In this document: one piece after another, positions 14,151 to 50,928 of the stretch
How positions within the stretch are numbered: position 1 is the first letter of the stretch
How the letters are laid out: each line of letters opens with the position of its first letter
NCBI GenBank assembly: GCA_964521915.1
Contig: CAZFTP010000002.1
Span: 159,675 to 223,674 of the forward strand
Source of the DNA: an uncultured Candidatus Marinamargulisbacteria bacterium
Lineage (GTDB): Bacteria; Margulisbacteria; Marinamargulisbacteria; CAZFTP01
Length of the DNA stretch: 64,000 bases
Reading direction: 5' to 3'
The notes under the pieces: model-generated
Told to the model about the DNA's origin: nothing
What the model saw: the letters and a program-made list of their open reading frames with translations, nothing else
The model's database searches: none
Position numbers and translations under genes: made by a program

Positions 14151-15160
14151 TGGCAACTAATACAATTGAAGAAATTAAAATATTAGAAGAATTACCGGAA
14201 TTTCCTACTGCTGATTTTGAAGAAATAGAAGCTTTAGCTGAAGAAGTTTTTGCAGAAGAAGAAGAAGCGTTTCAAGATGAATTAGAACAAATATTGAATT
14301 TAGAAAAATTATTACGTATTAGAGATGATGAACTTAATTCTGATGATGCTGTTAAAATGTATCTGAAAGAAATAGGTAAAATCAAACTGCTTAATAAAGA
14401 AAATGAATACGATTTATCTAAAAAAATTTCTCAAGGTGATATTAAAAGTAAGAATAAATTAATTATTTCTAATCTTCGTTTAGTTGTAAGCATTGCTAAA
14501 AAATATACCGGTAGAGGTATTTTATTTCTAGATTTAATACAAGAAGGTAATTTAGGTTTAATCAGAGCAGTTGAAAAGTTTGATTATACCAAAGGTTACA
14601 AATTTAGTACTTACGCAACTTGGTGGATTCGTCAATCAATTACCAGAGCTATTGCAGATCAAGCCAGAACAATCCGAGTACCTGTGCATATGATAGAAAC
14701 CATTAATAAGCTAAGAAAAATTTCACGTCAATTGTTACAGGAATTATCTCGCAAACCCACTGAAGAAGAAATTGCGGAGAAATGTGAATTGCCTATAGAT
14801 AAAGTTAAAGAAGTGGTGAGAATTTCGCAAGTACCGCTTTCTTTGGAAAATCCGGTTAGGGAAGAAGATGGTTATTTATTAAAAGATTTAGTTGAAGATT
14901 GTTCCTCTGAAGTTCCGGAAAAAATGTTGTTAAAAGACTCTTTGAGAGAAGATATTGATGAAATTTTATTGGATTTAAGTGAAAGAGAGGGGCAAGTAAT
15001 TAAATTGCGGTTTGGTTTTGAAGATGGAAAACCAAAAACGTTGGAAGAAGTTGGTAAAATTTATAATGTAACCAGAGAAAGAATTAGGCAAATAGAAGCA
15101 AAAGCCTTGAAAAAATTACAACATCCAAAACGGAAGAAGGTTTTAATAGAGTATCTTTAA
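14150..15160 (+). CDS. rpoD: Primary-like sigma-70 factor
   Basis: Region 2 [27 protein letters not shown]; region 4 [27 protein letters not shown]; classic dnaG-rpoD linkage. Confidence 0.95.
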
Positions 15161-16050: not shown

Positions 16051-16986
16051 ATGAGTTTAGATGAAAAACTATTAAGAAGTTTAGATGGTAAAAGACGAGA
16101 ACTTGATAAACTGCGTCCTTTCCCTAAATCCGCCTTAGAACGTTTACATCATCAGTTTATTATTGAATGGACTTTCAACTCTAATGCTATAGAAGGTAAT
16201 ACACTTACTTTAAGGGAAACTGCTTTGGTTTTAAATGAAGGTATTACCATTTCCGGTAAACCTTTAAGAGAACATTTTGAAGCTATTAATCATCAAAAAG
16301 CAATTTTAACTTTAGAAGACTTTATAGGGAAAAAAGTACCTCTTGACGAGAATTTAATTAAATCACTACATAAAATTATTCTAACTAATATTGATGAAAT
16401 TGAAGCAGGTTGCTATAGAAAAGAAAGAGTGCGCATTTTAGGTGCTACTCATATCCCACCAGATCCTCTTAAAATATCTAAATTAATGGCTGAATTAATA
16501 GCTGACTATTATCAAAAAGAAAAGGTGTTACATCCAATTGAATTAGCCGCAGAAATTCATTATCAATTAGTTAAAATTCATCCTTTTTTAGATGGTAATG
16601 GCAGAACTGCCAGATTAATCATGAATTTGATTTTAATGAAGGCAGGTTATCCGCCGGCAGTAATTTTAAAACTGGATAGGAAGAAATATTATCATGTTCT
16701 AAGAGAAAGAGATAATAATAAAAGAGAAGCTTTTGATAATTTTGTTGCTAAATCCGTTGAACGTTCATTAATTATTTATTTAGAAGCATTAACTCCAAGT
16801 ACCAATAAAGCTTATAATAAACAGGGTTATCTTAGCTTAGCCGAAGCAACAAAATACTGTAATTATTCTCAAGAGTATTTATCTTTACTGGCCAGAACCG
16901 GAAAATTAGCGGCTGTAAAAATTAACCGTAATTGGCTTACTACCAAAGAAGCTGTAGAAGAATACCAAAAATTAATTTTTCGGTAA
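16051..16986 (+). CDS. Fic-family protein (class II, internal inhibitory helix) with C-terminal excisionase/MerR-type HTH
   Basis: Fic motif HPFLDGNGRTARL; inhibitory motif SNAIEGN ([S/T]xxxE[G/N]); C-terminal YLSLAEATKYCNYSQEYLSLLARTGKLAAVKINRNW. Confidence 0.9.
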   Translation: MSLDEKLLRSLDGKRRELDKLRPFPKSALERLHHQFIIEWTFNSNAIEGNTLTLRETALVLNEGITISGKPLREHFEAINHQKAILTLEDFIGKKVPLDENLIKSLHKIILTNIDEIEAGCYRKERVRILGATHIPPDPLKISKLMAELIADYYQKEKVLHPIELAAEIHYQLVKIHPFLDGNGRTARLIMNLILMKAGYPPAVILKLDRKKYYHVLRERDNNKREAFDNFVAKSVERSLIIYLEALTPSTNKAYNKQGYLSLAEATKYCNYSQEYLSLLARTGKLAAVKINRNWLTTKEAVEEYQKLIFR

Positions 16987-17060: not shown

Positions 17061-17381
17061 ATGAAAAAAAATCAACAAATTAACATAAAAAAAATAACCC
17101 AAAAAATAATTGCGAAATTTAATCCAAAACTTATTTATTTATTTGGTAGTTATGCTAAAAATAACAATACTCCAAATAGTGATTTAGATATTTTAATAAT
17201 TGATGAAAAAGCTGAAAAAGAAGATTTGGCTTTACAAATAAGTTTAGAATTTTTTCCCAGAAATTATCATATGGATTTACTTGTTTATATGCCAATTGTT
17301 TTTGAAGATAAGCTAAAAAATAAATCTCCTTTTTTTAATGATATTATTCTTAATGGAAAAAAACTTTATGAAAGAGCTTGA
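17061..17381 (+). CDS. Minimal nucleotidyltransferase (MNT/MntA-like, antitoxin-type)
   Basis: GSYAKNNNTPNSDLDILI (GSxxxG..SDxD). Confidence 0.8.
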   Translation: MKKNQQINIKKITQKIIAKFNPKLIYLFGSYAKNNNTPNSDLDILIIDEKAEKEDLALQISLEFFPRNYHMDLLVYMPIVFEDKLKNKSPFFNDIILNGKKLYERA

Positions 17382-35589: not shown

Positions 35590-35712
35590 GGCAAAAGGCA
35601 CTAGGCACTAGTGGGGCTCAGAGGAAAAAGAGCCCCTGGGGGTTTTTAAGGGGCTTGCCCCCTTAAAGAATTTTTTTTCGTATACCCGTGAAGCGAAGCT
35701 TCAGGGGTATAC
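35590..35712. repeat. Mosaic GC-rich repeat cluster upstream of rnhB
   Basis: ggcaaaaggcactaggcactag; hairpins ggggctc..gagcccc (35613-35636) and ttaaggggcttgcccccttaa (35646-35666); TATAC-type hairpin gtataccc-gtgaagcgaagcttcag-gggtatac (35680-35712). Homologous to 4641-4700. Confidence 0.85.
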
Positions 35713-35726
35713 ATAAAGGAAAAGTA

Positions 35727-36401
35727 ATGAAATTAATCGGAATTGATGAAGCAGGTGTTGGACCAATAATCGGACCAATGGTAGTTGCAGGGGTCTTGGT
35801 TAAAGATCAGTTTTTATCAAAGCTACAAGAATTTGGCGTTAAAGATAGTAAAAAATTTAGTTTATCTAAAGCTAGACAGCAAAGATTGGCTACACTTGAA
35901 GCCGTGAGAAAGTATATTAAAAAAAAATTTGTTCAGTTAATTAGCGCTGAAGAATTAGATAATAGTAATTTTATTGATTTAGAAATTTTAGCAATTATTA
36001 AAATTTTAGAAGAATTAGATTATAAAACAGCTGATATTATTTATATTCCTCAGATAGGGCAGGTTAAATTAAATACATTAATAAATAAAATTAATCAGAT
36101 TAAACTGAATTTTTTTACTGAAAAAGTTATAGATAAAATAATTTATGAGATAGATGCCGATGATAAATTTTTACCGGTTTCTCTTGCGTCTATTATTGCT
36201 AAAACACGTAGAGATGCTGAAATGATAAGGCTTTGTGAATCAATTAATGAACCCTATATTTCTGGTTATCCGAATAAAAAAACTGCTGAATTTTTATATA
36301 ATTATTATAATAAGTACAATAAATTAGTGCCTCAGATTAGAAAAAGTAGAAACTGGGAACCTCTACAAAAGTTATTATCCAGTATACACATAAATTTGTA
36401 A
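35727..36401 (+). CDS. rnhB: Ribonuclease HII
   Basis: LIGIDEAGVGPIIGPMVVAGV. I prefer the ATG at 35727, preceded by aaaggaaaag. The GTG at 35688 in the ORF track lies inside a hairpin repeat. Confidence 0.85.
   Translation: MKLIGIDEAGVGPIIGPMVVAGVLVKDQFLSKLQEFGVKDSKKFSLSKARQQRLATLEAVRKYIKKKFVQLISAEELDNSNFIDLEILAIIKILEELDYKTADIIYIPQIGQVKLNTLINKINQIKLNFFTEKVIDKIIYEIDADDKFLPVSLASIIAKTRRDAEMIRLCESINEPYISGYPNKKTAEFLYNYYNKYNKLVPQIRKSRNWEPLQKLLSSIHINL
36159..36377 (+). repeat. Direct repeat copy 1 (inside intact rnhB)
   Basis: Matches 43372-43590 at a constant offset of 7213 bp with 6 mismatches and no indels. Confidence 0.95.
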
Positions 36402-36488
36402 TCGTTAATAGTTACAAACTAATACTTTTATCTCTTTAAATTAATGTTATTATTTTAATAAGGGGTATTAATTTGGAGGTCTATATTT

Positions 36489-37013
36489 ATGGAAAAAAAA
36501 CTTGTTATGGTTGTTGAAGATGACGAAATGATGGCTAAGCAATTAATTAATATTATTAAAGATTTTTTTACTTATCATCGACAATATGATGTTATTTGGG
36601 CTAAAAATGGGTTAGAGGCTTTAGAATTATATCGTAAAAATAAGGTTTGGTTTGGCTTTAAACAAAATAGAATTAAATGTATTTTACTTGATTTACGTAT
36701 GCCGGAAATGGATGGCGTACAATTTGTAACTCAATTACGTAAAATTGAAGAAAAAAACATTTTTGCTCAATTTATACCAGTTCTGTTTATTACTGCTTGG
36801 GAGGATAAAGAAAAATGGGAAAGTGCTATAGATTCTTTTGTTTCTGGTTATATTAAAAAACCGGTTGAACCTGAATCTCTAAAAAATTTACTTTGGAAAA
36901 TCCTATATAATAAGGATGCAGAAATACTTACGGAAAAAACTAAAAAACAAGCTTTAAAAAAGTATCAAGAATTCAATCAAAAAGGAAAACCTAAACAAGT
37001 TGCGGAAAACTAA
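36489..37013 (+). CDS. Stand-alone receiver-domain response regulator with short C-terminal tail
   Basis: VVEDDE, phospho-acceptor context ILLDLRMPEMDG, FITAW, KKP. GGAGG Shine-Dalgarno sequence. Confidence 0.85.
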   Translation: MEKKLVMVVEDDEMMAKQLINIIKDFFTYHRQYDVIWAKNGLEALELYRKNKVWFGFKQNRIKCILLDLRMPEMDGVQFVTQLRKIEEKNIFAQFIPVLFITAWEDKEKWESAIDSFVSGYIKKPVEPESLKNLLWKILYNKDAEILTEKTKKQALKKYQEFNQKGKPKQVAEN

Positions 37014-39129
37014 TTATAAAAGAGGTACCCATATTTAAATTGGTTTCTACTTTAATATTAGCCTTGTGGTTAAGTACTATTTGATTAACAATACTTAACC
37101 CTAAACCATGTCCATCTGTAGTATTGGTGGTAAAATAAGGTTCCCAAATTTTTTCTAAATTTTCAGGCGATATCCCTTTACCGTTATCACTAATTTTTAA
37201 AACAATATTTTTAGTATTACTATCAAAAAAAGTATTAATAATTATTTTGCCATTTATTTGCGGCAATGCATTAATAGCATTATTTAATAAATTTAAAAGT
37301 AGGCTTATTAAATCAGTTTTATTACCTGAAATTAAAGGTATATTTGTTAAATTTGTTTCTAAACTAAAACCGCTTGGCGGTTTTAGTTCTATAACTTCTT
37401 TTATTAGGTCATTAAAATTTAAAGGTTCCTGCTTTTTTTCTGTTACTGAACCAAGTTCAATACTATTATCAATAACTTTAAGTGCTCTACTTGTTTGAAT
37501 ATCAATTAAATGCATAAAATCTTGAATATCGGAATTAGAAATATTTTGTTTCTTTTTTAAATTATAATTCGCCATATTAATAGTAAAAAGGGGACTTCTT
37601 AATTCATGATTAGTATTTAAAGTAACTCTGGCTAAACTAGCGTTTTTTTCTGATCTTAGTAATTGTAATTGCGTTTGGTATAATTTTTCTTTATTTTTTT
37701 GAAATTCCTGCTCAATTTTTTCATATGGGGTGAGTTTATAAAATACAGCGTTAATATTATTAATTAACATTTTAAAAAAGTTAAGATCTTCCTTTTTATA
37801 AACAGCTTGGTTGCTTCTTTCACCTATAATCACTAAGCCTTCTAAAATCTCAGGTGAATGAAATGGTAATACACAGGCTTTTTTGTTAAACCCTAAATTG
37901 ATGATTTCTTTTTTAATTTCTGAATCTAAATATTTAAATAAACTCGTAACCGTAATATTGTGAAAATAATTAATTAAAGGATGATCAATCTGGATTGCTT
38001 TTTCCTGCAATACATTTTTATTCATTACTTTAGTAGTAACATCAATCTCATAATCAATTTCTCTTAATAAATAGCTGACTGAAACATCCTGCAGTGACAT
38101 TTTTACATCATCATTTTTCCTTTGAGCAAAAATCACCAGACTTTTTTCCAGCTCTAATTCGTTGTAAAGTTTTTCGTCAATAATTTCAAAAATTTGACTG
38201 CAGTTGTCCGTATTCCCGGCAAGTTCGGTAATCTGAACCAAAAGTTTATCGGCGTCGTAGTAGCCACGAATAAATTTATGTTTTATTCCTGTAATTAAAT
38301 ATTCTTGTATATCCTTGCCAAATAAAACTGAAATTAAACCTAAAAAAATCATCCAACAAATAAGAAAAAAAGAATTATGACCTAAAAAATATACAGAAAA
38401 ACCAAAAATAGGAATAACAAAACAAGAAACAATAAATATCGCGGTTGTATTTTTAATAACAACCTTGATATCCATTAGTTCATGTTTGGTTACAGCTATA
38501 GCCGTTAGAAGTAAATATATAAAAACAAAATAATTTGCTACTGGATAAAAACTTATCCCAAATACTGGCAAATAAGTTGTTGAGCCTCCAGTAAAACCAA
38601 TTAATGTAGCAATAGAAAAATAAAACACTTGTTTTTTTCTATGTCCACCTAGTTTTTTGTAAAATTTAATTAATAAATAGCAACCATAAAAAACACCCCA
38701 AAAAAAGAACATTAAAAAAACAGGATATAGTAAACCCGCTTGAGTATAATAATTAAAAGACATTATAGGCATTACACCTTTAATAAATAAATTTGTTGGG
38801 ATTAATAAAAGAAAAATGAAGCTTGATAAATAAAGAATAAAAACTGTTCTTTTTTTTTGCTTATTCAATCCTAGAATAGAAACAACAAAATGATAGTAAG
38901 AAGAATGAAGAAAAACTACCCCAATATGCAATATTTTAGCCCAAAATAAACCAGAGGCTTGATTTAAAGCCGTTACTTCTAAAGATAGCCCTGTGCTCCA
39001 AATTACTGAAGCTAATGCTAACAATGCAAATGATTGATTAATAACGTTTTTCGGATTTCTTATTAGAACATAGCCCCCAAGTATAATGGCAAATATAGAT
39101 GTAAGATATGAAGTTAATTCAAAAAACAT
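36991..39129 (-). CDS. Sensor histidine kinase with N-terminal 7TM-type membrane domain
   Basis: About 7-9 predicted TM helices ending in AVTKHELMDIKV (HisKA_7TM-like); H-box NHELRSPL; N box LLNNAINAL; G boxes DNGKGI and GHGLGLSIV. Confidence 0.85.
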   Translation of the reverse strand: MFFELTSYLTSIFAIILGGYVLIRNPKNVINQSFALLALASVIWSTGLSLEVTALNQASGLFWAKILHIGVVFLHSSYYHFVVSILGLNKQKKRTVFILYLSSFIFLLLIPTNLFIKGVMPIMSFNYYTQAGLLYPVFLMFFFWGVFYGCYLLIKFYKKLGGHRKKQVFYFSIATLIGFTGGSTTYLPVFGISFYPVANYFVFIYLLLTAIAVTKHELMDIKVVIKNTTAIFIVSCFVIPIFGFSVYFLGHNSFFLICWMIFLGLISVLFGKDIQEYLITGIKHKFIRGYYDADKLLVQITELAGNTDNCSQIFEIIDEKLYNELELEKSLVIFAQRKNDDVKMSLQDVSVSYLLREIDYEIDVTTKVMNKNVLQEKAIQIDHPLINYFHNITVTSLFKYLDSEIKKEIINLGFNKKACVLPFHSPEILEGLVIIGERSNQAVYKKEDLNFFKMLINNINAVFYKLTPYEKIEQEFQKNKEKLYQTQLQLLRSEKNASLARVTLNTNHELRSPLFTINMANYNLKKKQNISNSDIQDFMHLIDIQTSRALKVIDNSIELGSVTEKKQEPLNFNDLIKEVIELKPPSGFSLETNLTNIPLISGNKTDLISLLLNLLNNAINALPQINGKIIINTFFDSNTKNIVLKISDNGKGISPENLEKIWEPYFTTNTTDGHGLGLSIVNQIVLNHKANIKVETNLNMGTSFIISFPQLV

Positions 39130-39142
39130 ATTTATTTTTTTA

Positions 39143-40399
39143 TTAGTCCTTATCTCTTAGTTTAGCATGAGCATCCATATAATTATCCTTAGGGAAAGCA
39201 GAACAAATTGAGATTTCACCTGCTAGAAGAGTTGCCGCAATAATTTCAGCAAATTTTTTTGCTCCTCCTATTCCAGCACAGCCTAATATTTCTAAACATT
39301 CTTTTTGAGTTGCTAATGAAGTTCCTCCTCCAATAGTCCCAATTACTAAATTAGGCGCCTTTATTGATATATACAGATCTCCATTTTTGGTTATTTCGCA
39401 GGTACTAATACCTATAGATGAATTAACAATACTTGCCACATCTTGACCACAAGCTATAAAAATAGCAGCTAACGCATTAGCAAATTGGCCATTCATACCT
39501 ATCATACCCCCAAGAGTTGTACTCAAAATTACAGTTTGATAGTATTGATAAATTTCTTCTGCAGATGAATTTAAATACCTATTAATAATTTTTTGAGGTA
39601 ATAAAACAGATGCAGAAACATTCTTCCCATAAGTGTCAGTAAAATTTACGGCCGAAACTTTTTTATCAGAAGAAAAATTTGAACGTAAATAATATTTTTT
39701 CACAGGATACTTTTCAACGATATAACGCGAGGCTTCTCGTGTTGCAATATTTATCATATTTAATCCCATAGCATCACCGGTATAATATTTAAAAGTTAAT
39801 ATAACCTTATTACCAATAATACGAGATATAACATTTTTTAATTTACCATATTTTGTTGTTTTTTCAGCAATAGATTTAATTACAGCTAGATGTTCGCCTA
39901 ACCATAAAACAAAAGCATTAGCTTCTGATAATGTATCAAAAAAGAAGATAGGTGATGTACTTATTTCATCTTCATGGATCACAACTTCTGCTCCGCCGGA
40001 TTTAGTTATTGCAATCATTCCTCTAGTATAAGCTTTCACCAAAACACCTTCAGTTGTAGCAAATGGCACATGAAAATTTCCTTTAGCGTATTTACCATTA
40101 ATTTTTAATGGGCCTGCTAGACCGACAGGAACTTGAGCAACACCAATGAAAGTTTCTATATTATTTTTATAATTCTGACTGTCATCAGAAAAATTATTCA
40201 AATGCTTTATTTTAATATTCCTATTTTGTTCTAACCATTTTAATCGTAAAAATACATTTTCTTTTTTATGATCATTGTATCCATAATTGGGTATTCTTTC
40301 CTTTATTAAAGAAAAAGTAGTTTCTTCAGCATTTACTATAGTTTTTAAATCATTATTTGAATCTAATTTAATTTCTTTTTTATTGTATATAGTATCCAA
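39143..40399 (-). CDS. Class I HMG-CoA reductase-like NAD(P)H oxidoreductase (orphan)
   Basis: ATTEGVLVKA (catalytic Glu), SSDKK (Lys), GDAMGLNMIN (Asp), GTIGGGT, C-terminal MDAHAK (His). 13 nt upstream of the kinase start. Confidence 0.8.
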   Translation of the reverse strand: MDTIYNKKEIKLDSNNDLKTIVNAEETTFSLIKERIPNYGYNDHKKENVFLRLKWLEQNRNIKIKHLNNFSDDSQNYKNNIETFIGVAQVPVGLAGPLKINGKYAKGNFHVPFATTEGVLVKAYTRGMIAITKSGGAEVVIHEDEISTSPIFFFDTLSEANAFVLWLGEHLAVIKSIAEKTTKYGKLKNVISRIIGNKVILTFKYYTGDAMGLNMINIATREASRYIVEKYPVKKYYLRSNFSSDKKVSAVNFTDTYGKNVSASVLLPQKIINRYLNSSAEEIYQYYQTVILSTTLGGMIGMNGQFANALAAIFIACGQDVASIVNSSIGISTCEITKNGDLYISIKAPNLVIGTIGGGTSLATQKECLEILGCAGIGGAKKFAEIIAATLLAGEISICSAFPKDNYMDAHAKLRDKD

Positions 40400-40516
40400 A
40401 ATTCACACCTTCAAAAAAAATAATGAATGAAATTATAAATAGTACCTATTAAAATAGCATACGAACTTCTTTAATTAATCGCACAAAAACAATAAGAATT
40501 TCAACTTTTATTTATT

Positions 40517-40771
40517 TTAATAGCGGAAATTTTTACAAAGTGCTTGTTTTCTGAAATTAATTATACAATAATTTGCATTAAGAAACAAAAAATTTATTAA
40601 ATAGAAAAAATCACCGAATGTCCAAATTGACCAACTAAAAATAAATAACGAGAAAACTATATTTTTCTTACTATTTCTATTATGAATTAAAACCATTGCG
40701 CCTAGAAGTAAATTAGCAATAGACGCAACTAATGGTGATACTCTACTATAATTGATTATTAGTTCTAGCAT
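40517..40771 (-). pseudogene. N-terminal fragment of a 7TM sensor kinase paralogue
   Basis: LVASIANLLLGAMVLIHNRNSKKNIVFSLFIFSWSIW aligns with the N-terminus of the 36991-39129 kinase (LTSIFAIILGGYVLIRNPKNVINQSFALLALASVIW). Only 84 aa, with no kinase core. Confidence 0.55.
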
Positions 40772-40783
40772 GAAATTACCTAA

Positions 40784-42184
40784 TTAAATTATATTTAAAT
40801 TTTTGCCTATTTTCTCTATTTTATCAATAGTAAAATTAATTTGTTTTTCAGTATGTCCGGCTGAAACAATAAACCTTAACCGTCCTTTACCCTTCTTAAC
40901 AGCTGGGTAAGAAATCCAATTGGTAAAAACACCATTTTTAAAAAGTTCTTTACACATAGTCGCCAAATCTTGTTCATTATCAATGTAAATAGGAACTATT
41001 GGACTACTGCTTTTTCCTACATTAAAACCTAAATTTTTTATAGAATTTCTAAATTTATTTGTATTAGACCATAATTTTTGTTTTAGTTTTTTATCTTTTT
41101 GAATAATATTTAAGGCTTCTAGACATGCCGTAATATCTGCTGACGGTAAAGATGCTTGAAATAAATATGAGTTTGCAGTATGCCTTATAAAGGTTGCGTA
41201 TTCTTTTTTACAAGCAATAATTCCACCAATTGAACCAATGGCTTTGCTTAAAGTTGTCATAATAAAATCAACTTGATCTAAACAACCTAAATGAGCTGAT
41301 AATCCGTTTCCTTTTTCTCCATAAAAACCAAAAGAATGAGCTTCATCTACATATAAATAAAATTTATATTTTTCTTTTAATTTACAATATTCTTTTAATG
41401 GAGCTTCTTCACCTGACATACCATAAACTGATTCCGTAATAACAAAAATATTTTCATATTGACCTGAAGGTATCCGTTTTAATATTTGTTCTAAAGAATT
41501 AGCATCATTATTTTTAAAAGTTCGGAAATTTGTACCTGAAAGTTTTACCCCTTCAATAATACTAGAATGACATTCTTTATCAAAAATAATTAAATCATGT
41601 TTATCTGCAATAGCAGAAATAACGCCAAGATTTGTCGTAAAACCAGTTGGAAATAGAATAGCGGCTTCTTTATTAAAAAATCGGGCAAATTCACTCTCTA
41701 ATTGATTATGTAATGAACTAAATCCACCTGAAACTGCCGAAGTTCCACAACCAACGCCATTAATATCAATAATTTTTTTGGCATTTTCTAATACTTGAGG
41801 ATGACGATTTAAACCTAAATATAAATTAGTGCACCAGATAATACATTCATTCTCATTACTTTTATTGGGTGTCATAATACTAGCTGAGAAATTACTACCA
41901 TTTTTCAAGAATCTATCTAAAGTATATATTTCTAATTTTTTTTGTAATTGAGTTATTTCATATGTAAAATTAGTTTTTTGATCAAAATTTGTAATATTAT
42001 ATTGTTTTAAATTTCTGGCAATACTTAAAGGATGAATATTTTGAGCAAGTTTTTTTAAATATTTAATATTATTTTTCTTTATTATCTTAAATGTTTCTTT
42101 TTCAGCATTAACAATTTTTTTATTTATATTTTGAATTTTTGTTTGAGCAATATCAATTTCAGAAGAATTTTGTTTCAAATTCAT
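40784..42184 (-). CDS. PLP-dependent alpha-oxoamine synthase family enzyme (BioF/KBL/SPT/CqsA-LqsA family) with ~100 aa N-terminal extension
   Basis: NLYLGL, FPTGFTTNLG, DEAHSFG, PLP-lysine motif TLSKAIGSIGG, GRLRF. GGAGGGG Shine-Dalgarno sequence. Confidence 0.85.
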   Translation of the reverse strand: MNLKQNSSEIDIAQTKIQNINKKIVNAEKETFKIIKKNNIKYLKKLAQNIHPLSIARNLKQYNITNFDQKTNFTYEITQLQKKLEIYTLDRFLKNGSNFSASIMTPNKSNENECIIWCTNLYLGLNRHPQVLENAKKIIDINGVGCGTSAVSGGFSSLHNQLESEFARFFNKEAAILFPTGFTTNLGVISAIADKHDLIIFDKECHSSIIEGVKLSGTNFRTFKNNDANSLEQILKRIPSGQYENIFVITESVYGMSGEEAPLKEYCKLKEKYKFYLYVDEAHSFGFYGEKGNGLSAHLGCLDQVDFIMTTLSKAIGSIGGIIACKKEYATFIRHTANSYLFQASLPSADITACLEALNIIQKDKKLKQKLWSNTNKFRNSIKNLGFNVGKSSSPIVPIYIDNEQDLATMCKELFKNGVFTNWISYPAVKKGKGRLRFIVSAGHTEKQINFTIDKIEKIGKNLNII

Positions 42185-42352
42185 TTATCCCCTCCATAAA
42201 AACAAGTTTTTAATTGATATTTAATAATCGCATAAATATTATAAAAATTTCAATTTTGCCTATTTTTATAGCTAAATTAAGTATAGCATTTTTTTAGATT
42301 AATAAAGCAAGAAGTTTTGAAAAATAGCCATTTTGCAACAGATTCAAATTAC

Positions 42353-42547
42353 AAAGGCAAGAAGGCACAAGGTTTAGCTCTAAGGCTCGAACTCAAACCC
42401 TCACCCCAACCCTCCTCTCACACGAATGGGAGAGGGCGTTTTTTGAAAAAAGACAAGAGTTTACCCTTACTTAGTGCAGAAATAAAATAAAAAATGAGTT
42501 TTCCCCCAAAAGATAGGTCGGAGATTTTAAGCCCGCCCGGCAGGGAT
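42353..42547. repeat. Mosaic GC-rich repeat cluster
   Basis: aaggcaagaaggcacaaggtttagctc (as at 4641); ccctcaccccaaccctcctctcacacgaatgggagaggg (partial copy of the pdxA element, followed by a T-run); ccaaaagataggtcggagattttaagcccgcccggcaggg (half of the 19841 stem-loop, and related to 60191-60212). Confidence 0.85.
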
Positions 42548-42604
42548 TCTAAACATAGATATATTTATATTTCTTTTTTTAGTAAAATATGAAATAATTT
42601 TTTT

Positions 42605-42994
42605 ATGTACGAAGAAATAGCTAAGAAATGGTATAAACAGGCTAATCATGACTTATTAATGGCGGAAAAAAATTTAGAAATTGAAGGATATGATGTTAGT
42701 GCATTTTTAACACAACAAGCAATAGAAAAATTTTTAAAAACAATTTATTTATTAAGAAATAAAAAAATACCAAGAACGCATTATTTAGATGATTTAATTA
42801 GAGAGTTAAATTTATCTGATGAAATTTTAGATTTAGCAAATGATTTAACGGCAGATTATACATTAGCAAGATATCCTGATATTTCTGATTTAACACCTTA
42901 TGAAGAATATAATGAAGAAATAGCGTTAGAAAAATTAAATATAGCAAAACAAATTTATGATAAAATAAGTGCTGAATTTAAAGGTTTAAAATGA
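42605..42994 (+). CDS. HEPN-domain protein (HepT-like toxin candidate)
   Basis: QQAIEKFLKTIYLLRNKKIPRTHYLDDL (HEPN Rx4-6H region). Overlaps the downstream MNT gene by 4 nt. Confidence 0.75.
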   Translation: MYEEIAKKWYKQANHDLLMAEKNLEIEGYDVSAFLTQQAIEKFLKTIYLLRNKKIPRTHYLDDLIRELNLSDEILDLANDLTADYTLARYPDISDLTPYEEYNEEIALEKLNIAKQIYDKISAEFKGLK

Positions 42995-43317
42995 ATAATA
43001 ATTTTAAGGATAAAGTAATTAATCAATTTATTAAAGAAGTAATCCCAATTCTTAAAAAAGAGATAAAGCCTGAGGAGATATTATTTTTTGGGTCAAGAGT
43101 TACTGGTGAAGCAAAAGAAGAATCAGATTTAGATGTAATTTTAATTTCAGAATATTTTAAGAATATACCATTTATTAAACGTATGCCACTCGTATTAAAA
43201 AAAATAAAATTCAATAAGCATGTTGATATTTTATGTTATTCTCAAGATGAATTTGAACGTATTAAAAAAACATCTTCTATTATAGAAAATGCATTGATTT
43301 TTGCAAAACAATACTAA
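42991..43317 (+). CDS. Minimal nucleotidyltransferase (MntA-like antitoxin candidate)
   Basis: GSRVTGEAKEESDLDVILI. Confidence 0.8.
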   Translation: MNNNFKDKVINQFIKEVIPILKKEIKPEEILFFGSRVTGEAKEESDLDVILISEYFKNIPFIKRMPLVLKKIKFNKHVDILCYSQDEFERIKKTSSIIENALIFAKQY

Positions 43318-43359
43318 TTATTTCACTTCATTTTTTTTTAGAAAAAGAAAACGGGGTAA

Positions 43360-43650
43360 GCCCCAAAAGAAGATGATAAATTTTTACCGGTTTCCCTTGC
43401 TTCCATTATTGCAAAAACACGTAGAGATGCCGAAATAATAAGGCTTTGTGAATCAATTAATGAACCCTATATTTCTGGTTATCCGAATAAAAAAACTGCT
43501 GAATTTTTATATAATTATTATAATAAGTACAATAAATTAGTGCCTCAGATTAGAAAAAGTAGAAACTGGGAACCTCTACAAAAGTTATTACAGGAAGAAA
43601 ATAATGTAGGGACGCGATTTATCGCGTCCGCAGAATCTAAAATTATCTAA
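43360..43650 (+). pseudogene. Start-less 3' remnant of rnhB (direct repeat copy 2 at 43372-43590)
   Basis: Encodes EDDKFLPVSLASIIAKTRRDAEIIRLCESINEPYISGYPNKK...WEPLQKLL, then a different tail QEENNVGTRFIASAESKII. An in-frame TAA at 43357-43359 lies immediately upstream, and there is no N-terminal catalytic region. Confidence 0.9.
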
Positions 43651-44363
43651 GATGATTTTTTGAAATCTACCATTGGTACACCATTAACGTATTCATCAAT
43701 TACAATATTTTTCATTTTACTTAAAGAATCCATGATAGTTCTAATTCTTCTGGCACAGTTTATTACTTCATTTACAACTTTTTTTTCTGCCGGTTTATCA
43801 GCAAACATACTTTTCAATAATTGCGACCCTAATAATATAGTTGTTAACGGATTTCTTATTTCGTGATGTAAAGAAACATATATTTGTTTTAAAAGTAATT
43901 CTTTTTCTTTTTCTATAATTTTAGTTTGATTTTCAGTTAGATTTTTTTCATTACCAGCTATATCAACAGCCATAGCTTTTAAATTATCTTTTTCTCTTTT
44001 AAATCTTAAAATTAACTCAACCCGTAATAGTAATTCTTCTGTAATATAAGGTTTTGTAATATAATCATCAGCCCCAATTTCAAAACCTTCTTTTTTAGCA
44101 GAAATTTCTTCTAAAGCAGTTACAAAAATTACTGGTATTTCTTTGGTTTTAGGATTACTTTTAATCTTTTTACAAATATCAAAACCATTTTCACCAGGTA
44201 AGAAAATATCGAGTAAAATTAAATCTGGATTTTCTTTTTCAATTAGAGTAAGCCCTTTTTCACCATTTTCCGCAGATATAACAGTAAAGCCAGCATCTTC
44301 TAAAGTCATTATAGCAAGTTCTAGATTCATTTTATCATCTTCAATAATTAATATTTTTTCCAT
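43647..44363 (-). CDS. Receiver domain fused to a HisKA/DHp domain, without an ATPase domain
   Basis: IIEDDK, LILLDIFLPGENG, FVTA, KP; then H-box SLHHEIRNPLTT. The protein ends about 70 aa later with no N/G boxes. Confidence 0.75.
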   Translation of the reverse strand: MEKILIIEDDKMNLELAIMTLEDAGFTVISAENGEKGLTLIEKENPDLILLDIFLPGENGFDICKKIKSNPKTKEIPVIFVTALEEISAKKEGFEIGADDYITKPYITEELLLRVELILRFKREKDNLKAMAVDIAGNEKNLTENQTKIIEKEKELLLKQIYVSLHHEIRNPLTTILLGSQLLKSMFADKPAEKKVVNEVINCARRIRTIMDSLSKMKNIVIDEYVNGVPMVDFKKSS

Positions 44364-45346: not shown

Positions 45347-47968
45347 ATGCGTAATATCTATTTTTTTAATAATAATTTTGGCTTAGAGCAAGTAGGGGGA
45401 AAAGGTTTATCTTTAATTAAAATGACGCAGGCAGGTTTACCTGTACCGCCCGGTTTTATTTTGGCAACAGATTTTTTTCTTCCCTGGGAAGAAGAGTTAA
45501 AATCATTGGCAGAATGGAAAAAAACAGATCTTAGAAAAAACTTATCAGAATTAATAGACGCTTTGAAAAAAGCGTCTCAAAATTTAAAGTTAACCAAAGA
45601 TCAAAAAGAAGAATTAAATAAGGCATTAAGTGATTTTCCTGAAGCAAAGGATATGCTTTTCTCCGTAAGATCATCTTCACCCGAAGAAGATTTGGCAGGT
45701 GCTTCTTTTGCCGGAATCTATGAAACTGTTTTAGGCGTAAATCTGGAAAATATAGAAAAAGCTATTTTAACGGTTTTTCAATCTCAATTAGATTTAAGAG
45801 CTTTTGAATATAAATATCATCATGGGTTTGATATTACTAAACTTAAAATTGCGGTTATTATTCAAACTCAAATTGCCAGTGAATCTGCCGGAGTAGGTTT
45901 TTCTATTAATCCTCTGAATAATTGTTATGATGAAGTAGTAATTAACGCAAATTGGGGGTTAGGCGAAAGTATAGTTTCCGGTGATGTTACCCCAGATACT
46001 TATTTGATTAATAAATATACCAACGAAATTATATCAAAAGAAGTAGGTTCAAAAACGCAGAGCTATTTTCTTACCAAAAATGGGATTGAAACAAAACAAA
46101 ATAAAAATCCAAAGGATTTTGTTCTTTCAGAAGATAAAATCCTGGAATTAAAAGAATTAATTCTAAAAGTTGAAAAATATTACCAAATGCCTATGGATAC
46201 GGAATGGGCTTTTTACAAAGACACCTTGTTTTTGTTACAAGCTAGACCAATTACAACTTATCTACCGTTACCTCCTAAAATTCTTACTAAACCAGGTGAA
46301 AAACCGCAATTATACTTAGATTTAACCTTAGTAGAGCAAGGTATACAAGGGGCTCTTTCTCCGATAGGAATTAGCTGGTTTGGCGGAATTACCGAAACTA
46401 TGATTTTTGAAGCAACCAATATACCTGATTTAGGATGCGATTTAAAAGATGGGTTAGCAGATTCGGTTGGTGGTAGAACCTATCTAAGTATTTCTAATCT
46501 ATTATGGTTGATGAAGGCTAAAGCTTTAGCGGGTGAATTTGCCAGTCTAGATACTTATGCGGCTAGAATATTAGAACAAATTAATGAGAAAGATTACAAA
46601 TCGATTAAAAAACCTAGTACTTTCAAAGGAATAATATGGAAATCGCTTTATCATACCGGTGGTTTAATGAAAGATACTATGGTGGGTATTATTTTCCCAC
46701 AAAAACTTAATGCCAAATATGAACGTGGTGTAAAACAATATTTAGCAGATGTTGAAGCACTTAAAAAGGAAAAGTTGGATATTCTCAGTTTATACGAAAA
46801 AACCGTGAAACTGGGGGTAGATTTAATGATGAAAATTACGCTACCTACTCTTATGGATGCAGAAATGGCAAAGGCTGAACTTAAATCTATGTTTAAAAAA
46901 GATCCGCAAGAAATTCAAGATTTAGTTGATTGTCTGGATCGTGCTTTACCGAGGAATGTTACTACAGAAATGGGGTTAGCAATTTATCATATGGCAAGGC
47001 AAATAAAACCGCAAGAATATCAAGATTTAGATAAATTAGCTAAAAAAATTGAAGCTAAAGACATGCCTAAGGAATTTCTTGCAGATTGGCAAAATTTTAT
47101 GGCGAAATTTGGTTTTAGGGGTCCAAAAGAAATCGATGTTTTATCCGAAAGATATATGGATAATCCGATAATTTTATTAAATCAAATGGCAAATTTTGCA
47201 GAAATTAAGGATGATAAACTAAATCCTCAAGCTCAGTTTGAAATTAAAGCCAAAGAAAGAAAAGATGCCTATGAAAAACTTTTGGAATATACTAAAAAAC
47301 ACCTGATTAAAAATAAAATTTTCAAGAAAATGTATAAAATCCTGGAAGAATTTGGCGGTTTAAGAGAAGTTCATAAATACTACCTGGTAATGATAAATCA
47401 TTATTTAAGAATAAAGCTATTAGAAGAGGGTGCTAAATTAGTTAAATTAGGTAGATTAGATAAACCGGAAGATATTTTTTATCTTTATATTAATGAATTG
47501 AGAGAAGGGCTTGAACATCAAGCAACAAACTTGAAAGCACTTGCAAAAGTAAATAAAGAATTTAGTGATAGGTTAATGCAAGTTCCTTCTTTTCCGCCAT
47601 TAGTAGATTCTCGGGGTAGAATTCTTGCTCCGCCAAAAAGAAAAGCCGGTCCTGGCGAATTAATCGGGGATCCGGTAAGTAACGGGGTAATAAAAGGTCC
47701 GGTTAAGATTTTACATACTTCCGATGAAAAGAAAGTGGAACCAGGTGATATTTTGGTTATTAGATCAGCAGATCCGGGTTGGACACCGCTTTTTATTACT
47801 GCCGGTGCGGTAATTCTAGAAGTTGGCGGTATGTTACAGCATGGTTCAATCATTGCCAGAGAATACGGAAAACCTTGTATTGCTGGTATAGATGGGGTCA
47901 TGGATAAACTAAAAGATGGACAAATGGTAGAAGTTAACGGGCAAGAAGGAATTGTAAAAATTTTATAA
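45347..47968 (+). CDS. PEP-utilising / pyruvate-water-dikinase-like enzyme with rifampicin-phosphotransferase-type architecture
   Basis: N-terminal ATP-grasp VGGKGLSLIKMTQAGLPVPPGF; C-terminal swivel His domain DPGWTPLFITAGAVILEVGGMLQHGSIIAREYGKPCIAG. Confidence 0.8.
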   Translation: MRNIYFFNNNFGLEQVGGKGLSLIKMTQAGLPVPPGFILATDFFLPWEEELKSLAEWKKTDLRKNLSELIDALKKASQNLKLTKDQKEELNKALSDFPEAKDMLFSVRSSSPEEDLAGASFAGIYETVLGVNLENIEKAILTVFQSQLDLRAFEYKYHHGFDITKLKIAVIIQTQIASESAGVGFSINPLNNCYDEVVINANWGLGESIVSGDVTPDTYLINKYTNEIISKEVGSKTQSYFLTKNGIETKQNKNPKDFVLSEDKILELKELILKVEKYYQMPMDTEWAFYKDTLFLLQARPITTYLPLPPKILTKPGEKPQLYLDLTLVEQGIQGALSPIGISWFGGITETMIFEATNIPDLGCDLKDGLADSVGGRTYLSISNLLWLMKAKALAGEFASLDTYAARILEQINEKDYKSIKKPSTFKGIIWKSLYHTGGLMKDTMVGIIFPQKLNAKYERGVKQYLADVEALKKEKLDILSLYEKTVKLGVDLMMKITLPTLMDAEMAKAELKSMFKKDPQEIQDLVDCLDRALPRNVTTEMGLAIYHMARQIKPQEYQDLDKLAKKIEAKDMPKEFLADWQNFMAKFGFRGPKEIDVLSERYMDNPIILLNQMANFAEIKDDKLNPQAQFEIKAKERKDAYEKLLEYTKKHLIKNKIFKKMYKILEEFGGLREVHKYYLVMINHYLRIKLLEEGAKLVKLGRLDKPEDIFYLYINELREGLEHQATNLKALAKVNKEFSDRLMQVPSFPPLVDSRGRILAPPKRKAGPGELIGDPVSNGVIKGPVKILHTSDEKKVEPGDILVIRSADPGWTPLFITAGAVILEVGGMLQHGSIIAREYGKPCIAGIDGVMDKLKDGQMVEVNGQEGIVKIL

Positions 47969-47987: not shown

Positions 47988-49160
47988 CTAATTTATGAAA
48001 TTAGTAATTAAGTTTTGGATTTCTCGCCAGCAAATAATGGCGGTTTGATTTCTTGTATAGGATTCTTCGCCACCATAAATGATGCCACGATTTTGAATTT
48101 TATATTTTAGAGTTTTTAAGAAATCTAAACCTTTAAAGAAATCAGGATTTATAGTTCTTGCGGCTTTTATCTCTATAGCATTTATCTGAATAACCTTGTC
48201 AAAGATAACATCAACTTCATGACCGGCATGATCGCGAAAGAAAAAGAGATTTTCCATTAATACTCGATTATAAATGATTTTTAAAATTTCACTGATTACA
48301 TAAGTTTCAAAAATAGACCCAAATAAAGGGTGATTATTAAGTTGTTCAGGTTTTTTTATATTTAATAAACAACAAACTAAGCCAGTATCATAAAAAAATA
48401 ATTTAGGTGCTTTTACGTAACGTTTATTTTGTTTTTGATAATAAGGATAAATTATTTTAATAATATAAGAGGCCTCTAAAATAGAAAGCCAGTTTTTTAC
48501 GGTTTTTTGATCTATGCCAATATCATTTGATATGGAACTATAGTTTAAGATTTGACCGGTTCTACCCGCAATTAACTTCAAAAAGATTTCAAATACGGAT
48601 AAATCCTTTATATTTATTAGGTTACGTAAATCTCTTTCGATATAGGTATTAATATAAAACATTAAAGCTTCAGTTGGGTTTAAATTTTCTTTAAAAATTC
48701 GGGGATAGAATCCCTTAAATAAAACTTCTGTTAAATTAATTGTTTTATTATTGTGATAGATTTCTTGGTAACTAAAAGGTAAAAGTTTAATTAAAGCGGT
48801 TCTTCCGGCAAGGGATTGAGTTAAATTAGACATAATTTCAAATTGTTGACTACCAGTTAAAATATATAAGCCATTTTTTTGTTTTGCATCAACAATAGTC
48901 TGGATATAAGAGGTTAAAGCAGGTGCTTTTTGGATTTCATCAAAAACAGCTCCATCCGGATATTGAGATAAGAACCCTTTAGGGTCATTATTCGCAAAAT
49001 CACGTTGATCTAAATCTTCTAAAGAAATATAGGGTTTATTCGGAAATATTTGTTGGCAAAGAGTGGTTTTTCCTGATTGTCTGGGACCTGTTATGGTTAT
49101 AACTGGATATTGTTTAACAATACTTAAAATTTTTTCCGTAATAGAGCGATTTATTAACAT
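47988..49160 (-). CDS. AAA-type ATPase with DUF4143-like C-terminal domain
   Basis: Walker A GPRQSGKTTL. The size and layout are typical of AAA_14/DUF4143 proteins. Confidence 0.7.
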   Translation of the reverse strand: MLINRSITEKILSIVKQYPVITITGPRQSGKTTLCQQIFPNKPYISLEDLDQRDFANNDPKGFLSQYPDGAVFDEIQKAPALTSYIQTIVDAKQKNGLYILTGSQQFEIMSNLTQSLAGRTALIKLLPFSYQEIYHNNKTINLTEVLFKGFYPRIFKENLNPTEALMFYINTYIERDLRNLINIKDLSVFEIFLKLIAGRTGQILNYSSISNDIGIDQKTVKNWLSILEASYIIKIIYPYYQKQNKRYVKAPKLFFYDTGLVCCLLNIKKPEQLNNHPLFGSIFETYVISEILKIIYNRVLMENLFFFRDHAGHEVDVIFDKVIQINAIEIKAARTINPDFFKGLDFLKTLKYKIQNRGIIYGGEESYTRNQTAIICWREIQNLITNFIN

Positions 49161-49203
49161 ATATTTAGTATAAAATATGTAAATCCGGAATTCAAGTCCT
49201 AAT

Positions 49204-50928
49204 TTACAGGTTTTTTGATATTCGTTCTAATGCGTTATGTAGTTTGATAAAATTATCCAAATAACAAGCTGATTTGCATAAGCAATTTACACAATTGTTT
49301 ATACTGGTGCATCTTGGTAAGGGTAACCCAGAAAATTTTCTGGGTTTAATTTCCAGGGGATCATTATTATAGAAACTTGCGTAATTATGGTTAATTAAAT
49401 GTGTAAAATAATTACCATATTTAAACAACCAAAAATGATCTTCAAGTATTTCTAGTATTTCATTTTTAGTTTTCTTATTTAGTTTGAGTTCGCAATATTT
49501 GGCTAATATAGCTTTTAAATCAAATACCCCATATGTATCTTTTTTGATAACTTTTAAAGCTAATTCATAGTTTTTGACTTCCAAAAAAATGAAACACATA
49601 AATATTTCGGCTTCAATATTAAAATTGACAGGGATACGTAAAAATAGATTTTGTAACTGATCTCTAATTTTTTTAGTAAAGAGAAAAGAAGTATTTAGCC
49701 GTTTAGCTAAAATACCAGCTAGTTGTGATATTTTTTGGAAACTAGTTTTATCATCAATTTCACAAATGGTATTAATAATCTGATCAATTACTTCTGTGCA
49801 ATAAAAGTATTCGTCTTTATTTAGCGGTTGAGGTGCAGACATACCAGAGATATAAATATAATAAGACGGGAAACCTAAAAAAGAGAAGTCTTTTACATAA
49901 ATTTGGTGTTTATTTTTTGATAAATGATTCAGTAAGAATTGAAGATAAAATTTGTTTGATTCGTTAGTTTTGGTAAAAGCGGTTTTATAATTAGGTTTTT
50001 GATTATTAATCAGAAGTAAATTAAGTAAATTTTCCGGATTGTTAAAAATATCAATTTCTACATTTATCTTTTTTAGATATTGAGAATAGCAATGCCATAA
50101 AGATTTAGTACCTTGATATATTTCGGTTATACAACGAGTAAGCGCTATTTCAAAAACAGGGTCAGATCCAAAAGCTATACCAAATACGTCTTTTTGATGG
50201 TCTATGATTATTACCGCTAAAACCGGAATTTTTCCGTTTAAAGTGCAATCTTTTATAATTATTTCTAATTTTTTTTCTTTTAATTCGTTTAATAATTTAA
50301 TCGTAATTTGGTCTGTAATTGGTAAATTTTCAAGTGGAATATTTGGAAAAGATTTTATTTTTCCTAAAGCGAAATCACGAATAATAAACCGTTCCATAAT
50401 TTCACAAATACCTTGGCATAAGGCTTCTTCTTTGGTATTTCCAGCGCACATACCAGTACTTCCGGTAGAATTTAACATTAAATAATACGGTAGAGTAACT
50501 ATTTTGTATTCAAAAACAGATTCAAATGTTAAACAGGGTAATTTTTCAAGAATGACATTTTCTTCTATTAATTCCGAAAATAATTCAGGAAATTCATTTT
50601 TTAGTTTCTTAGCGTTTTGCCAAGAGAAATCAGGGTGAAAATAGTTTTTGGGTATAATCTTACCCACTTGACCTAGCCATTCATGGGTATAGCATTGTAA
50701 ACGTTCCATAAATTCAGCATAGGCGCTGGCTAATGCTAGTTCTTTGGTAAGCCCTTTTCCGTTAGCATAGATTAAAGGATATTCATTACAGATTAAGTGA
50801 CAAGAATAGCAATGATTATAAGAATGAAAAAAAATAGGTTCTTTTTGAAAAGTAATACCAAGATCAGCTAAAATTTTTTTAATTTTTGCAATAGTTGTTT
50901 TAGGTTTAGCATCTTTATGTTGATTCAT
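49204..50928 (-). CDS. ycaO: YcaO-family protein (E. coli-like stand-alone type)
   Basis: ANGKGLTKELALASAYAEFMERL and GMCAGNTKEEALCQGICEIMERF. Confidence 0.8.
   Translation of the reverse strand: MNQHKDAKPKTTIAKIKKILADLGITFQKEPIFFHSYNHCYSCHLICNEYPLIYANGKGLTKELALASAYAEFMERLQCYTHEWLGQVGKIIPKNYFHPDFSWQNAKKLKNEFPELFSELIEENVILEKLPCLTFESVFEYKIVTLPYYLMLNSTGSTGMCAGNTKEEALCQGICEIMERFIIRDFALGKIKSFPNIPLENLPITDQITIKLLNELKEKKLEIIIKDCTLNGKIPVLAVIIIDHQKDVFGIAFGSDPVFEIALTRCITEIYQGTKSLWHCYSQYLKKINVEIDIFNNPENLLNLLLINNQKPNYKTAFTKTNESNKFYLQFLLNHLSKNKHQIYVKDFSFLGFPSYYIYISGMSAPQPLNKDEYFYCTEVIDQIINTICEIDDKTSFQKISQLAGILAKRLNTSFLFTKKIRDQLQNLFLRIPVNFNIEAEIFMCFIFLEVKNYELALKVIKKDTYGVFDLKAILAKYCELKLNKKTKNEILEILEDHFWLFKYGNYFTHLINHNYASFYNNDPLEIKPRKFSGLPLPRCTSINNCVNCLCKSACYLDNFIKLHNALERISKNL

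Follow-up and report, generated by a model that had tools for sequence, protein, structure and literature searches.

The 64,000-nt stretch analysed here, referred to as the window, comprises positions 159,675 to 223,674 of contig CAZFTP010000002.1 from an uncultured Candidatus Marinamargulisbacteria bacterium. Within it, the RNase HII gene rnhB is followed by a 7.2-kb block of genes, and a headless second copy of the rnhB 3′ end closes that block on its far side. We tentatively read this arrangement as the scar of a Campbell-type insertion into the rnhB 3′ end, whose likeliest agent would be the site-specific integrase of an element resembling the Escherichia coli prophage e14; as a whole this reading stands a little short of an even chance.

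A direct repeat of the rnhB 3′ end brackets a 7.2-kb block

A repeat search of the window yielded a two-copy direct repeat at 36159-36377 and 43372-43590, 219 nt long and 97% identical, with a spacing of 7213 bp. Base-by-base comparison of the copies revealed no insertions or deletions and six mismatches, at 36182, 36188, 36191, 36200, 36218 and 36224. The copies found each other by blastn with E=2e-105, and a third copy was absent from the window at both the DNA and the protein level (blastn and protein search). In the rnhB frame, all six mismatches occupy third codon positions, for which the chance probability is (1/3)^6 = 0.0014; five are synonymous and one exchanges Met for Ile. They are also unevenly spread. 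Six mismatches would all land in the leading 66 of the 219 positions with a probability of 6e-4, an uninterrupted match of 153 positions or more has one of 0.005, and the repeat is a mosaic of 9% divergence across 66 bp followed by 0% across 153 bp. Because the differences are confined to third codon positions (6/6) and clustered, the two copies are, judged from their sequences, alleles that diverged under coding selection and that recombination later brought together; such a divergence pattern is not what a fresh local duplication would give.

The homology ends abruptly on the left and on the right. When the 150 nt outside each repeat edge were compared by local alignment, the upstream pair was matched or beaten by 123 of 500 controls and the downstream pair by 462 of 500, the controls being local alignments of random pairs of window segments (n=500). 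The 153-bp core itself showed no structure (z=+1.6). An AT-rich near-palindrome inside the core (36292-36323) is within chance expectation for coding DNA of 27% GC.

Copy 1 lies within the intact rnhB gene. The database gene call starts rnhB at ATG 35727 (224 aa), and its longest open reading frame (ORF) begins at GTG 35688; the product is 100% identical to database entry P0001. Against TIGR00729 it scores 124.2 bits (cut-off 123.3), with residues 17-229 of 237 covered. The right edge of the repeat corresponds to residue 230, directly past the last conserved residues of RNase HII (W..PLQ.L), and because this edge coincides with the end of the RNase HII model (residue 229), the insertion is non-disruptive. 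Copy 2 is without the N-terminal 157 codons and so without the catalytic N-terminus. The reading of copy 1 ends in ...KLLSSIHINL and that of copy 2 in ...KLLQEENNVGTRFIASAESKII, each followed by a stop codon. Close to the end of copy 2, a hairpin, GGACGCGA-TTTA-TCGCGTCC, is located at 43610-43630, just downstream of a convergent receiver-HisKA gene. The C-terminal tails of relatives are too variable to single out tail 1 or tail 2 as the ancestral one.

An earlier note on this DNA, made from the sequence alone, had described the repeat at these positions and this offset, without indels and with six mismatches within 36182-36224 ahead of 153 identical bp. It had also counted five synonymous changes and one Met-to-Ile exchange, had taken the copies for diverged coding alleles and not for a recent tandem duplication, and had pointed to a second copy that lacks the catalytic N-terminus, is preceded by an in-frame TAA at 43357-43359 and ends in a different C-terminal tail. 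Our comparisons returned every one of these points.

The RNase HII encoded here is of the archaeal type, in that it passes TIGR00729 and none of the bacterial PRK00015 models. Its homologues outside its own clade include proteins of Bathyarchaeia, Methanobrevibacter and Thermosphaera.

A proposed single reciprocal crossover

We favour one reciprocal crossover because this single event accounts for both novel junctions. An explanation must cover two alleles diverged under coding selection, the mosaic of 9% and 0% divergence, the two sharp edges and the intact gene. A circular DNA of ~7.2 kb, on which the final 219 conserved bases of rnhB were present in slightly diverged form, would have recombined once, reciprocally, with the chromosomal rnhB, giving the order rnhB(5′ part)-repeat-tail 1-cargo-repeat′-tail 2. 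With the breakpoint directly past the last conserved residues, rnhB would have remained functional, and its displaced 3′ fragment would have ended up 7.2 kb downstream. By analogy with e14, the crossover would fall within the identical 23-bp block (36159-36181), the element would have supplied tail 1 and tail 2 would be native. The integrative element would since have lost its recombination genes or would never have had any, in the manner of a non-autonomous island such as a cis-mobilizable element (CIME), and the HEPN/MNT pair at its edge would aid retention of the island. The 153-bp identical direct repeats should permit rare RecA-mediated loss of the block, yielding rnhB with tail 2. The sequence shows the repeat with its mosaic, coding-type divergence and sharp edges, the intact gene with its headless fragment, and the lack of a recombinase; the circular intermediate, the choice of native tail and the role of an integrase are inferred, and present-day mobility, if any, would be so too.

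The context lends some support to this insertion: a toxin-antitoxin pair stands at the right repeat, a possible kinase fragment lies in the insert, and the G+C content at third codon positions (GC3) is lower in the cargo genes. In addition, an independent assembly branches at the boundary between core and tail, and in the two nearest relatives gene content is conserved on the upstream side of rnhB and variable on its downstream side.

Table 1. Features of the rnhB locus, its direct repeat and the bracketed block.
Feature	Coordinates	Strand	Evidence or remark
RNase HII gene (rnhB), intact	35688..36401	+	PF01351 E=8e-32; TIGR00729
Repeat copy 1 (attL-like)	36159..36377	+	rnhB codons 158-230 (GTG-start numbering), up to the end of the family-conserved part
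Identical 23-bp block, left repeat edge	36159..36181	+	Base-by-base comparison; candidate crossover region if e14-like (by e14 analogy)
Diverged sub-block	36182..36224	+	Six mismatches vs 43395-43437, all at third codon positions
Identical 153-bp block	36225..36377	+	Equals 43438-43590
Tail 1 (SSIHINL, stop), now on rnhB	36378..36401	+	Unrelated to tail 2
Response regulator, stand-alone	36489..37013	+	PF00072 E=7e-20
Histidine kinase with 7TM sensor region	36991..39129	-	HisKA_7TM + HATPase_c; forms a pair with the HMGR-like gene, as at L071-L073
HMG-CoA-reductase-like enzyme, class I type	39143..40399	-	PF00368 E=3e-108
84-aa ORF, possible gene fragment of 7TM kinase N-terminus	40517..40771	-	Weak resemblance: HisKA_7TM E=0.007 (sub-threshold)
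Alpha-oxoamine synthase family enzyme (BioF / Kbl / serine-palmitoyltransferase-like)	40784..42184	-	PF00155 E=3e-48
HEPN (42605-42994) + MNT nucleotidyltransferase (42991-43317) toxin-antitoxin pair	42605..43317	+	PF05168, PF18765, PF01909; MntA_antitoxin weak
Terminator-like hairpin with T-run	43352..43365	-	7 nt left of copy 2
Repeat copy 2 (attR-like)	43372..43590	+	Headless 73-codon rnhB fragment; preceded by in-frame TAA 43357-43359
Tail 2 (QEENNVGTRFIASAESKII, stop), 19 codons	43591..43650	+	Passes through hairpin 43610-43630; overlaps the convergent gene's stop codon
Receiver-HisKA protein, right flank, convergent with the rnhB fragment	43647..44363	-	PF00072 + PF00512

Comparison with known insertions into gene ends

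The icd/icdC repeat of prophage e14 in E. coli K-12 (background in PMC13626634) was measured for comparison: its 165 bp contain 12 mismatches, of which 11 affect third positions. Its sharp left edge is the prophage boundary, icd is intact, icdC is headless, and intE/xisE lie inside the prophage. In both cases a housekeeping protein gene has received the insertion in its 3′ end and is left intact, a headless fragment marks the far end and the left edge is sharp; the repeat measures 219 bp here versus 165 bp in e14, with third-position differences of 6/6 versus 11/12. The two differ in the target (rnhB here, icd in e14) and in their contents, e14 having intE/xisE and phage genes whereas the insert here is without a recombinase or phage gene. 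Furthermore, the e14 homology continues past the stop codon and terminator, whereas here it ends 8 codons before the stop and the tails are unrelated; and the mismatches, dispersed over the repeat in e14, are confined to its first 30% here. Phage 21 uses the same icd site as e14. What the locus has in common with insertions of the e14/phage 21 type is that repeats of the target-gene 3′ end bracket the insert, with the gene rebuilt at one junction and a truncated copy at the other; an element-encoded tyrosine or serine recombinase, phage or conjugation genes and similarity to mobile elements were not found in Pfam, phage, IMG/VR and plasmid searches. The att-like integration into the gene 3′ end that the earlier note had proposed is thus upheld in its anatomy (bracketing repeats, intact rnhB, e14-like measurements) but not as the work of a dedicated mobile element, no integrase or relic of one having been found.

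CIMEs are islands of 1.2-13 kb that keep att sites without recombination genes, with fda, rpsI and rpmG among the genes whose 3′ ends they occupy (PMC7563491). The block resembles the streptococcal CIMEs in that cargo lies between att-type direct repeats in a gene 3′ end, that integrase, relaxase and conjugation genes are missing, and that metabolic enzymes are among the cargo. What identifies a CIME, however, is its descent from an integrative and conjugative element (ICE) or integrative and mobilizable element (IME) of the same att specificity, or its accretion in tandem with one, whereas neither a partner of this sort nor a relic or cognate integrase turned up, be it in the window or among the rnhB neighbours of relatives; ICE or IME genes were altogether absent from the window. 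The phylum is a different one. The att repeats of CIMEs are, moreover, usually much shorter than 219 bp.

The arrangement also recalls tRNA/tmRNA islands and prophages, in which the element supplies a replacement 3′ end, the target survives and the displaced fragment marks the distal end. Here, by contrast, the target is a protein gene, no integrase is present and no tRNA is near the insert, the tRNAs of the window being found only at 21.6-21.8 kb, 15 kb away.

The cargo includes a gene pair conserved in other phyla

The cargo genes are those that the earlier note had named (two-component genes, two biosynthetic enzymes, a kinase fragment and a HEPN/MNT pair), but they are not a miscellany. 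The HMG-CoA-reductase-like (HMGR-like) gene is directly followed by the HisKA_7TM kinase gene, with a response regulator nearby (pair at 36991-40399), and the same order is seen on a contig of a metagenome-assembled genome (MAG; L071, 8001-11269) and in Omnitrophica (L072, 1695-5395; L073, 1581-5281). Judged by this conserved gene pair, the cargo is not random. Homologues of the HMGR-like enzyme are 46-55% identical (best ~54%), and many are fused to a PilZ or receiver domain, which suggests an HMGR-family enzyme working inside a signalling pathway; a literature search found no paper on a signalling pair of this kind, HMGR-family enzyme plus 7TM kinase. The enzyme scores below the NCBIfam equivalog cut-off (TIGR00533, 334.8 vs 441.8), and every NCBIfam match of the alpha-oxoamine synthase is likewise under its equivalog cut-off.

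The 84-aa ORF shares 32% identity over 44 aa with the N-terminus of the insert kinase (E=0.011), and the HEPN/MNT pair directly adjoins the right-hand repeat. Protein comparison revealed no recent paralogues within the insert or between it and the flanks; the response regulator, for example, is 28% identical to the receiver-HisKA protein of the right flank. The alpha-oxoamine synthase and the HMGR-like enzyme have a weakly similar N-terminal extension of ~60 aa (35% over 66 aa, E=0.04).

The 420-bp gap to the left of the HEPN gene contains a promoter-like site at 42214-42242 and, at ~42408-42445 on the + strand, a GC-rich hairpin followed by a T-run (CCCTCCTCTC...GGGAGAGGG CGTTTTTT). From these signals, the segment 42214-42447 could encode a small transcript of ~200 nt or could be a repetitive extragenic palindromic (REP)-like element. 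The overall fold of the gap is no better than that of shuffles (z=-0.8), and Rfam gave no match in the insert gaps, even at E<=1.

Relatives of the locus

Relatives were sought with an RNase HII profile among genome contigs and with the 73-aa peptide encoded by the repeat among metagenome contigs and in IMG/VR; exact and cluster look-ups covered 30 window proteins. The closest relative's RNase HII is 57% identical and the closest named one 56% (a Candidatus Margulisiibacteriota MAG), so the genome seems to be of a Margulisbacteria-like lineage; species-representative genomes and JGI metagenomes gave no match closer than 49%. The window proteins looked up were singleton 90% clusters whose only occurrences were the source contig and short Logan unitigs of run SRR4343442.

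LpxB and a P-type ATPase are conserved upstream of rnhB in the two nearest relatives. Downstream, one has an LRR/NEL gene and the other HTH-Fic and AbiE genes, which fits, at the level of gene order, a variable region beginning at the rnhB end. Neither the cargo nor the right flank adjoins rnhB in the relatives inspected (L063, L065-67 and ten more distant loci).

Two of these loci carry repeats of their own. In L065, an inverted repeat of 318 bp (632-949 and 14706-15023; 99.7% identical) brackets ~14 kb holding the LpxB, ATPase, rnhB, Fic and AbiE genes, and this stretch may be an invertible segment or reflect a duplicated gene. In the Margulisiibacteriota relative L063, an intergenic repeat of 63-69 bp (93-94% identical, both orientations) occurs at 8357-8419, 14728-14863 and 17154-17222, the first directly downstream of rnhB; it could be an element resembling a miniature inverted-repeat transposable element or a REP element.

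Evidence against an integrase-driven insertion

Several results count against the insertion by an e14-like element. A Pfam scan detected no integrase, excisionase, transposase or relaxase among the insert ORFs and no recombinase among essentially all ORFs of the window, so that the absence of integrase, transposase and relaxase genes that the earlier note had seen between the repeats extends to all 64 kb. The gaps 40400-40516 and 42185-42604 held no relic in six-frame translations, which were judged by eye and not by Pfam scan. A recombinase acting in trans, for which the earlier note had proposed a search, was found neither in the window nor on Logan contig L074, which extends one end of the window and encodes DnaB, TGT and hydrogenase. 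Nor did phages, IMG/VR sequences and plasmids give a match to the insert, other than one of 75 bp to an aminotransferase.

The comparison of insert and flanks that the earlier note had suggested gave a tetranucleotide distance of 0.130 for the insert, within the 0.077-0.165 of other 7-kb windows, and the GC content was also within their range. The cargo genes have a slightly lower GC3 than the remainder of the window (0.143 vs 0.190, p=0.006), but the receiver-HisKA gene of the right flank is equally low. Homologue distances are alike for cargo, core and flank (HMGR-like enzyme 54%, rnhB 57%, right-flank PEP-utilising enzyme 52%), and some of the cargo genes form a signalling module of the kind usual on chromosomes. 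Taken together, the sequence evidence for a foreign origin of the insert is weak.

The relatives, too, are unhelpful to this insertion. No second copy, empty site or circular junction was found in the collections, where the nearest relative is 57% identical. At the rnhB loci inspected, there was neither a repeat of the rnhB 3′ end nor an integrase beside the gene, and L065 has, 6.4 kb from rnhB, a homologue (40% identical) of the response regulator in the cargo. Finally, the repeat itself departs from expectation, since its homology stops short of the stop codon, unlike that of e14, and the clustering of its mismatches needs an extra assumption, either a mosaic donor allele or later gene conversion.

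Alternative explanations

The most serious alternative keeps the one-crossover geometry and dispenses with the element. The DNA would have come from a sister strain whose rnhB is natively followed by the cargo, and host machinery only would have inserted it, either by RecA after circularisation of a fragment or through homology-facilitated illegitimate recombination, the illegitimate end lying at 43371/43372. This explanation fits the missing recombinase in 64 kb and the host-like tetranucleotide content nearly as well as an integrase-driven insertion does. The 153 bp of perfect identity are ample for RecA, the cargo is of chromosomal type, a homologue of its response regulator occurs in the rnhB neighbourhood of L065, and, as the downstream side of rnhB differs between the nearest relatives, sister strains could differ there as well. 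On the other hand, the sharp, codon-aligned left edge and the non-disruptive right edge have the look of attP/attB sites, the edge HEPN/MNT pair and the lower GC3 hint weakly at mobile DNA, no strain of the donor type is known, and the scheme needs either a circularisation that was not observed or a duplicative illegitimate join. We regard host-driven insertion as possible, though on the whole unlikely.

In a bolder form of host-driven exchange, the block would be a recombinase-free 'homology-handle' island that excises and re-inserts via host RecA on its 153-219-bp rnhB 3′ handle, spreads by uptake of the circle, is stabilised by HEPN/MNT and delivers a complete HMGR-like/7TM-kinase signalling module. 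We consider such an island a long shot. If real, it would stand for a class of mobile cassettes whose hallmark is a borrowed gene end and not an enzyme.

The one-crossover insertion has also to be weighed against a history of two events, in which the cargo is native after rnhB and the rnhB fragment came as the left end of an imported right flank (receiver-HisKA, methyltransferase and PEP-utilising enzyme) through an illegitimate join at 43371/43372. The right flank indeed looks accessory: its PEP-utilising protein is patchily distributed with best matches of 52%, including a methanogen, a DUF4143 ATPase and a YcaO gene follow further along, its receiver-HisKA gene is low in GC3, and a minus-strand terminator stands directly left of the junction. 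However, two different tails would require an earlier, independent breakpoint at the same site (36377/8) in addition to the second event, and 153 bp of perfect identity beside 9% divergence would be left to mosaicism alone. Being less parsimonious than one crossover, this history is improbable.

An assembly artefact we hold to be similarly improbable. A mis-threaded 153-bp perfect repeat, or a join between contigs of two co-existing strains, could have produced the arrangement from a true state of rnhB with tail 2 plus a separate cargo molecule or strain. The repeat exceeds the usual k-mers and is about one short read long, and the source is of metagenome type (a 244,658-bp contig) with fragmented Logan unitigs for SRR4343442, a run that no paper mentions according to a literature search. 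In this independent assembly, unitig L068 begins at 36348 and so overlaps the right end of copy 1 by exactly k-1 = 30 nt; there is therefore a graph branch at the core/tail boundary, with two continuations in the raw reads. On the other side, L069 ends at 43599, 9 nt short of copy 2, and no independent contig among those retrieved covers the junctions 43371/43372 and 43590/43591. Unitigs cannot resolve a perfect repeat of 153 bp, and to them the integrated state and an excised circle plus empty site look alike. Against an artefact stand the junction 43371/43372, a novel sequence that must be present in reads, the implausibility of a 7.2-kb circle without a replication gene as a plasmid, and the tendency of overlap merging to collapse repeats, not to duplicate them. 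The start of the fragment 23 nt before the first mismatch would furthermore imply k=24, yet assemblers normally use odd k. Nor is Logan fragmentation worse in the insert, where 2/6 proteins are intact in contigs, than elsewhere (9/17), and because fragmentation runs throughout the window there is no sign of lower insert coverage.

A local tandem duplication of 36159-43371, with most of the second copy deleted and the 3′ 153 bp homogenised by gene conversion, is very improbable: direct repeats with this spacing and without indels can arise in this way, but three events would be required, only 219 bp of the second copy remain and end exactly where conserved rnhB ends, and six third-position differences are unexpected in a non-coding fragment (P=0.0014).

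The right flank and the rest of the window

The receiver-HisKA protein of the right flank (238 aa) is without an ATPase domain and could act in phosphotransfer or as a phosphatase, unless it is a truncated hybrid kinase. Further along, 45347-47968 encodes a phosphoenolpyruvate (PEP)-utilising enzyme resembling rifamycin phosphotransferase or PEP synthase, which is patchily distributed and whose best matches, 52% identical, include proteins of Methanoplanus endosymbiosus and Eremiobacterota. It is followed by a DUF4143/AAA_14 ATPase and a YcaO gene (47988-50928). The entire stretch downstream of rnhB may be accessory.

Elsewhere in the window, 16051-16986 encodes a Fic/DOC protein with a helix-turn-helix (HTH) domain. 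A second MNT-type nucleotidyltransferase gene at 17061-17381, 27% identical to the insert MNT at the protein level, has a GC3 of 0.093, the second lowest among the window genes.

Implications

The locus carries a genuine insertion scar of a familiar type, in a target gene not reported before and in a lineage that has been little studied; the block is decayed or non-autonomous at best, and no sign of present mobility was found. The structure is otherwise well known and opens no new question on present evidence. For users of this assembly, the 153-bp perfect repeat is a caution, since spanning reads are needed to separate integrated from excised states. A literature search found no paper that ties rnhB to an attB site. 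If confirmed, the rnhB 3′ end would be the first documented insertion hotspot in that gene, and the scar would be among very few described in a Margulisbacteria-like lineage. The locus shows how a whole sensing module, consisting of a response regulator, a 7TM kinase, an HMGR-like enzyme and an alpha-oxoamine synthase, can be added without damage to the target gene.

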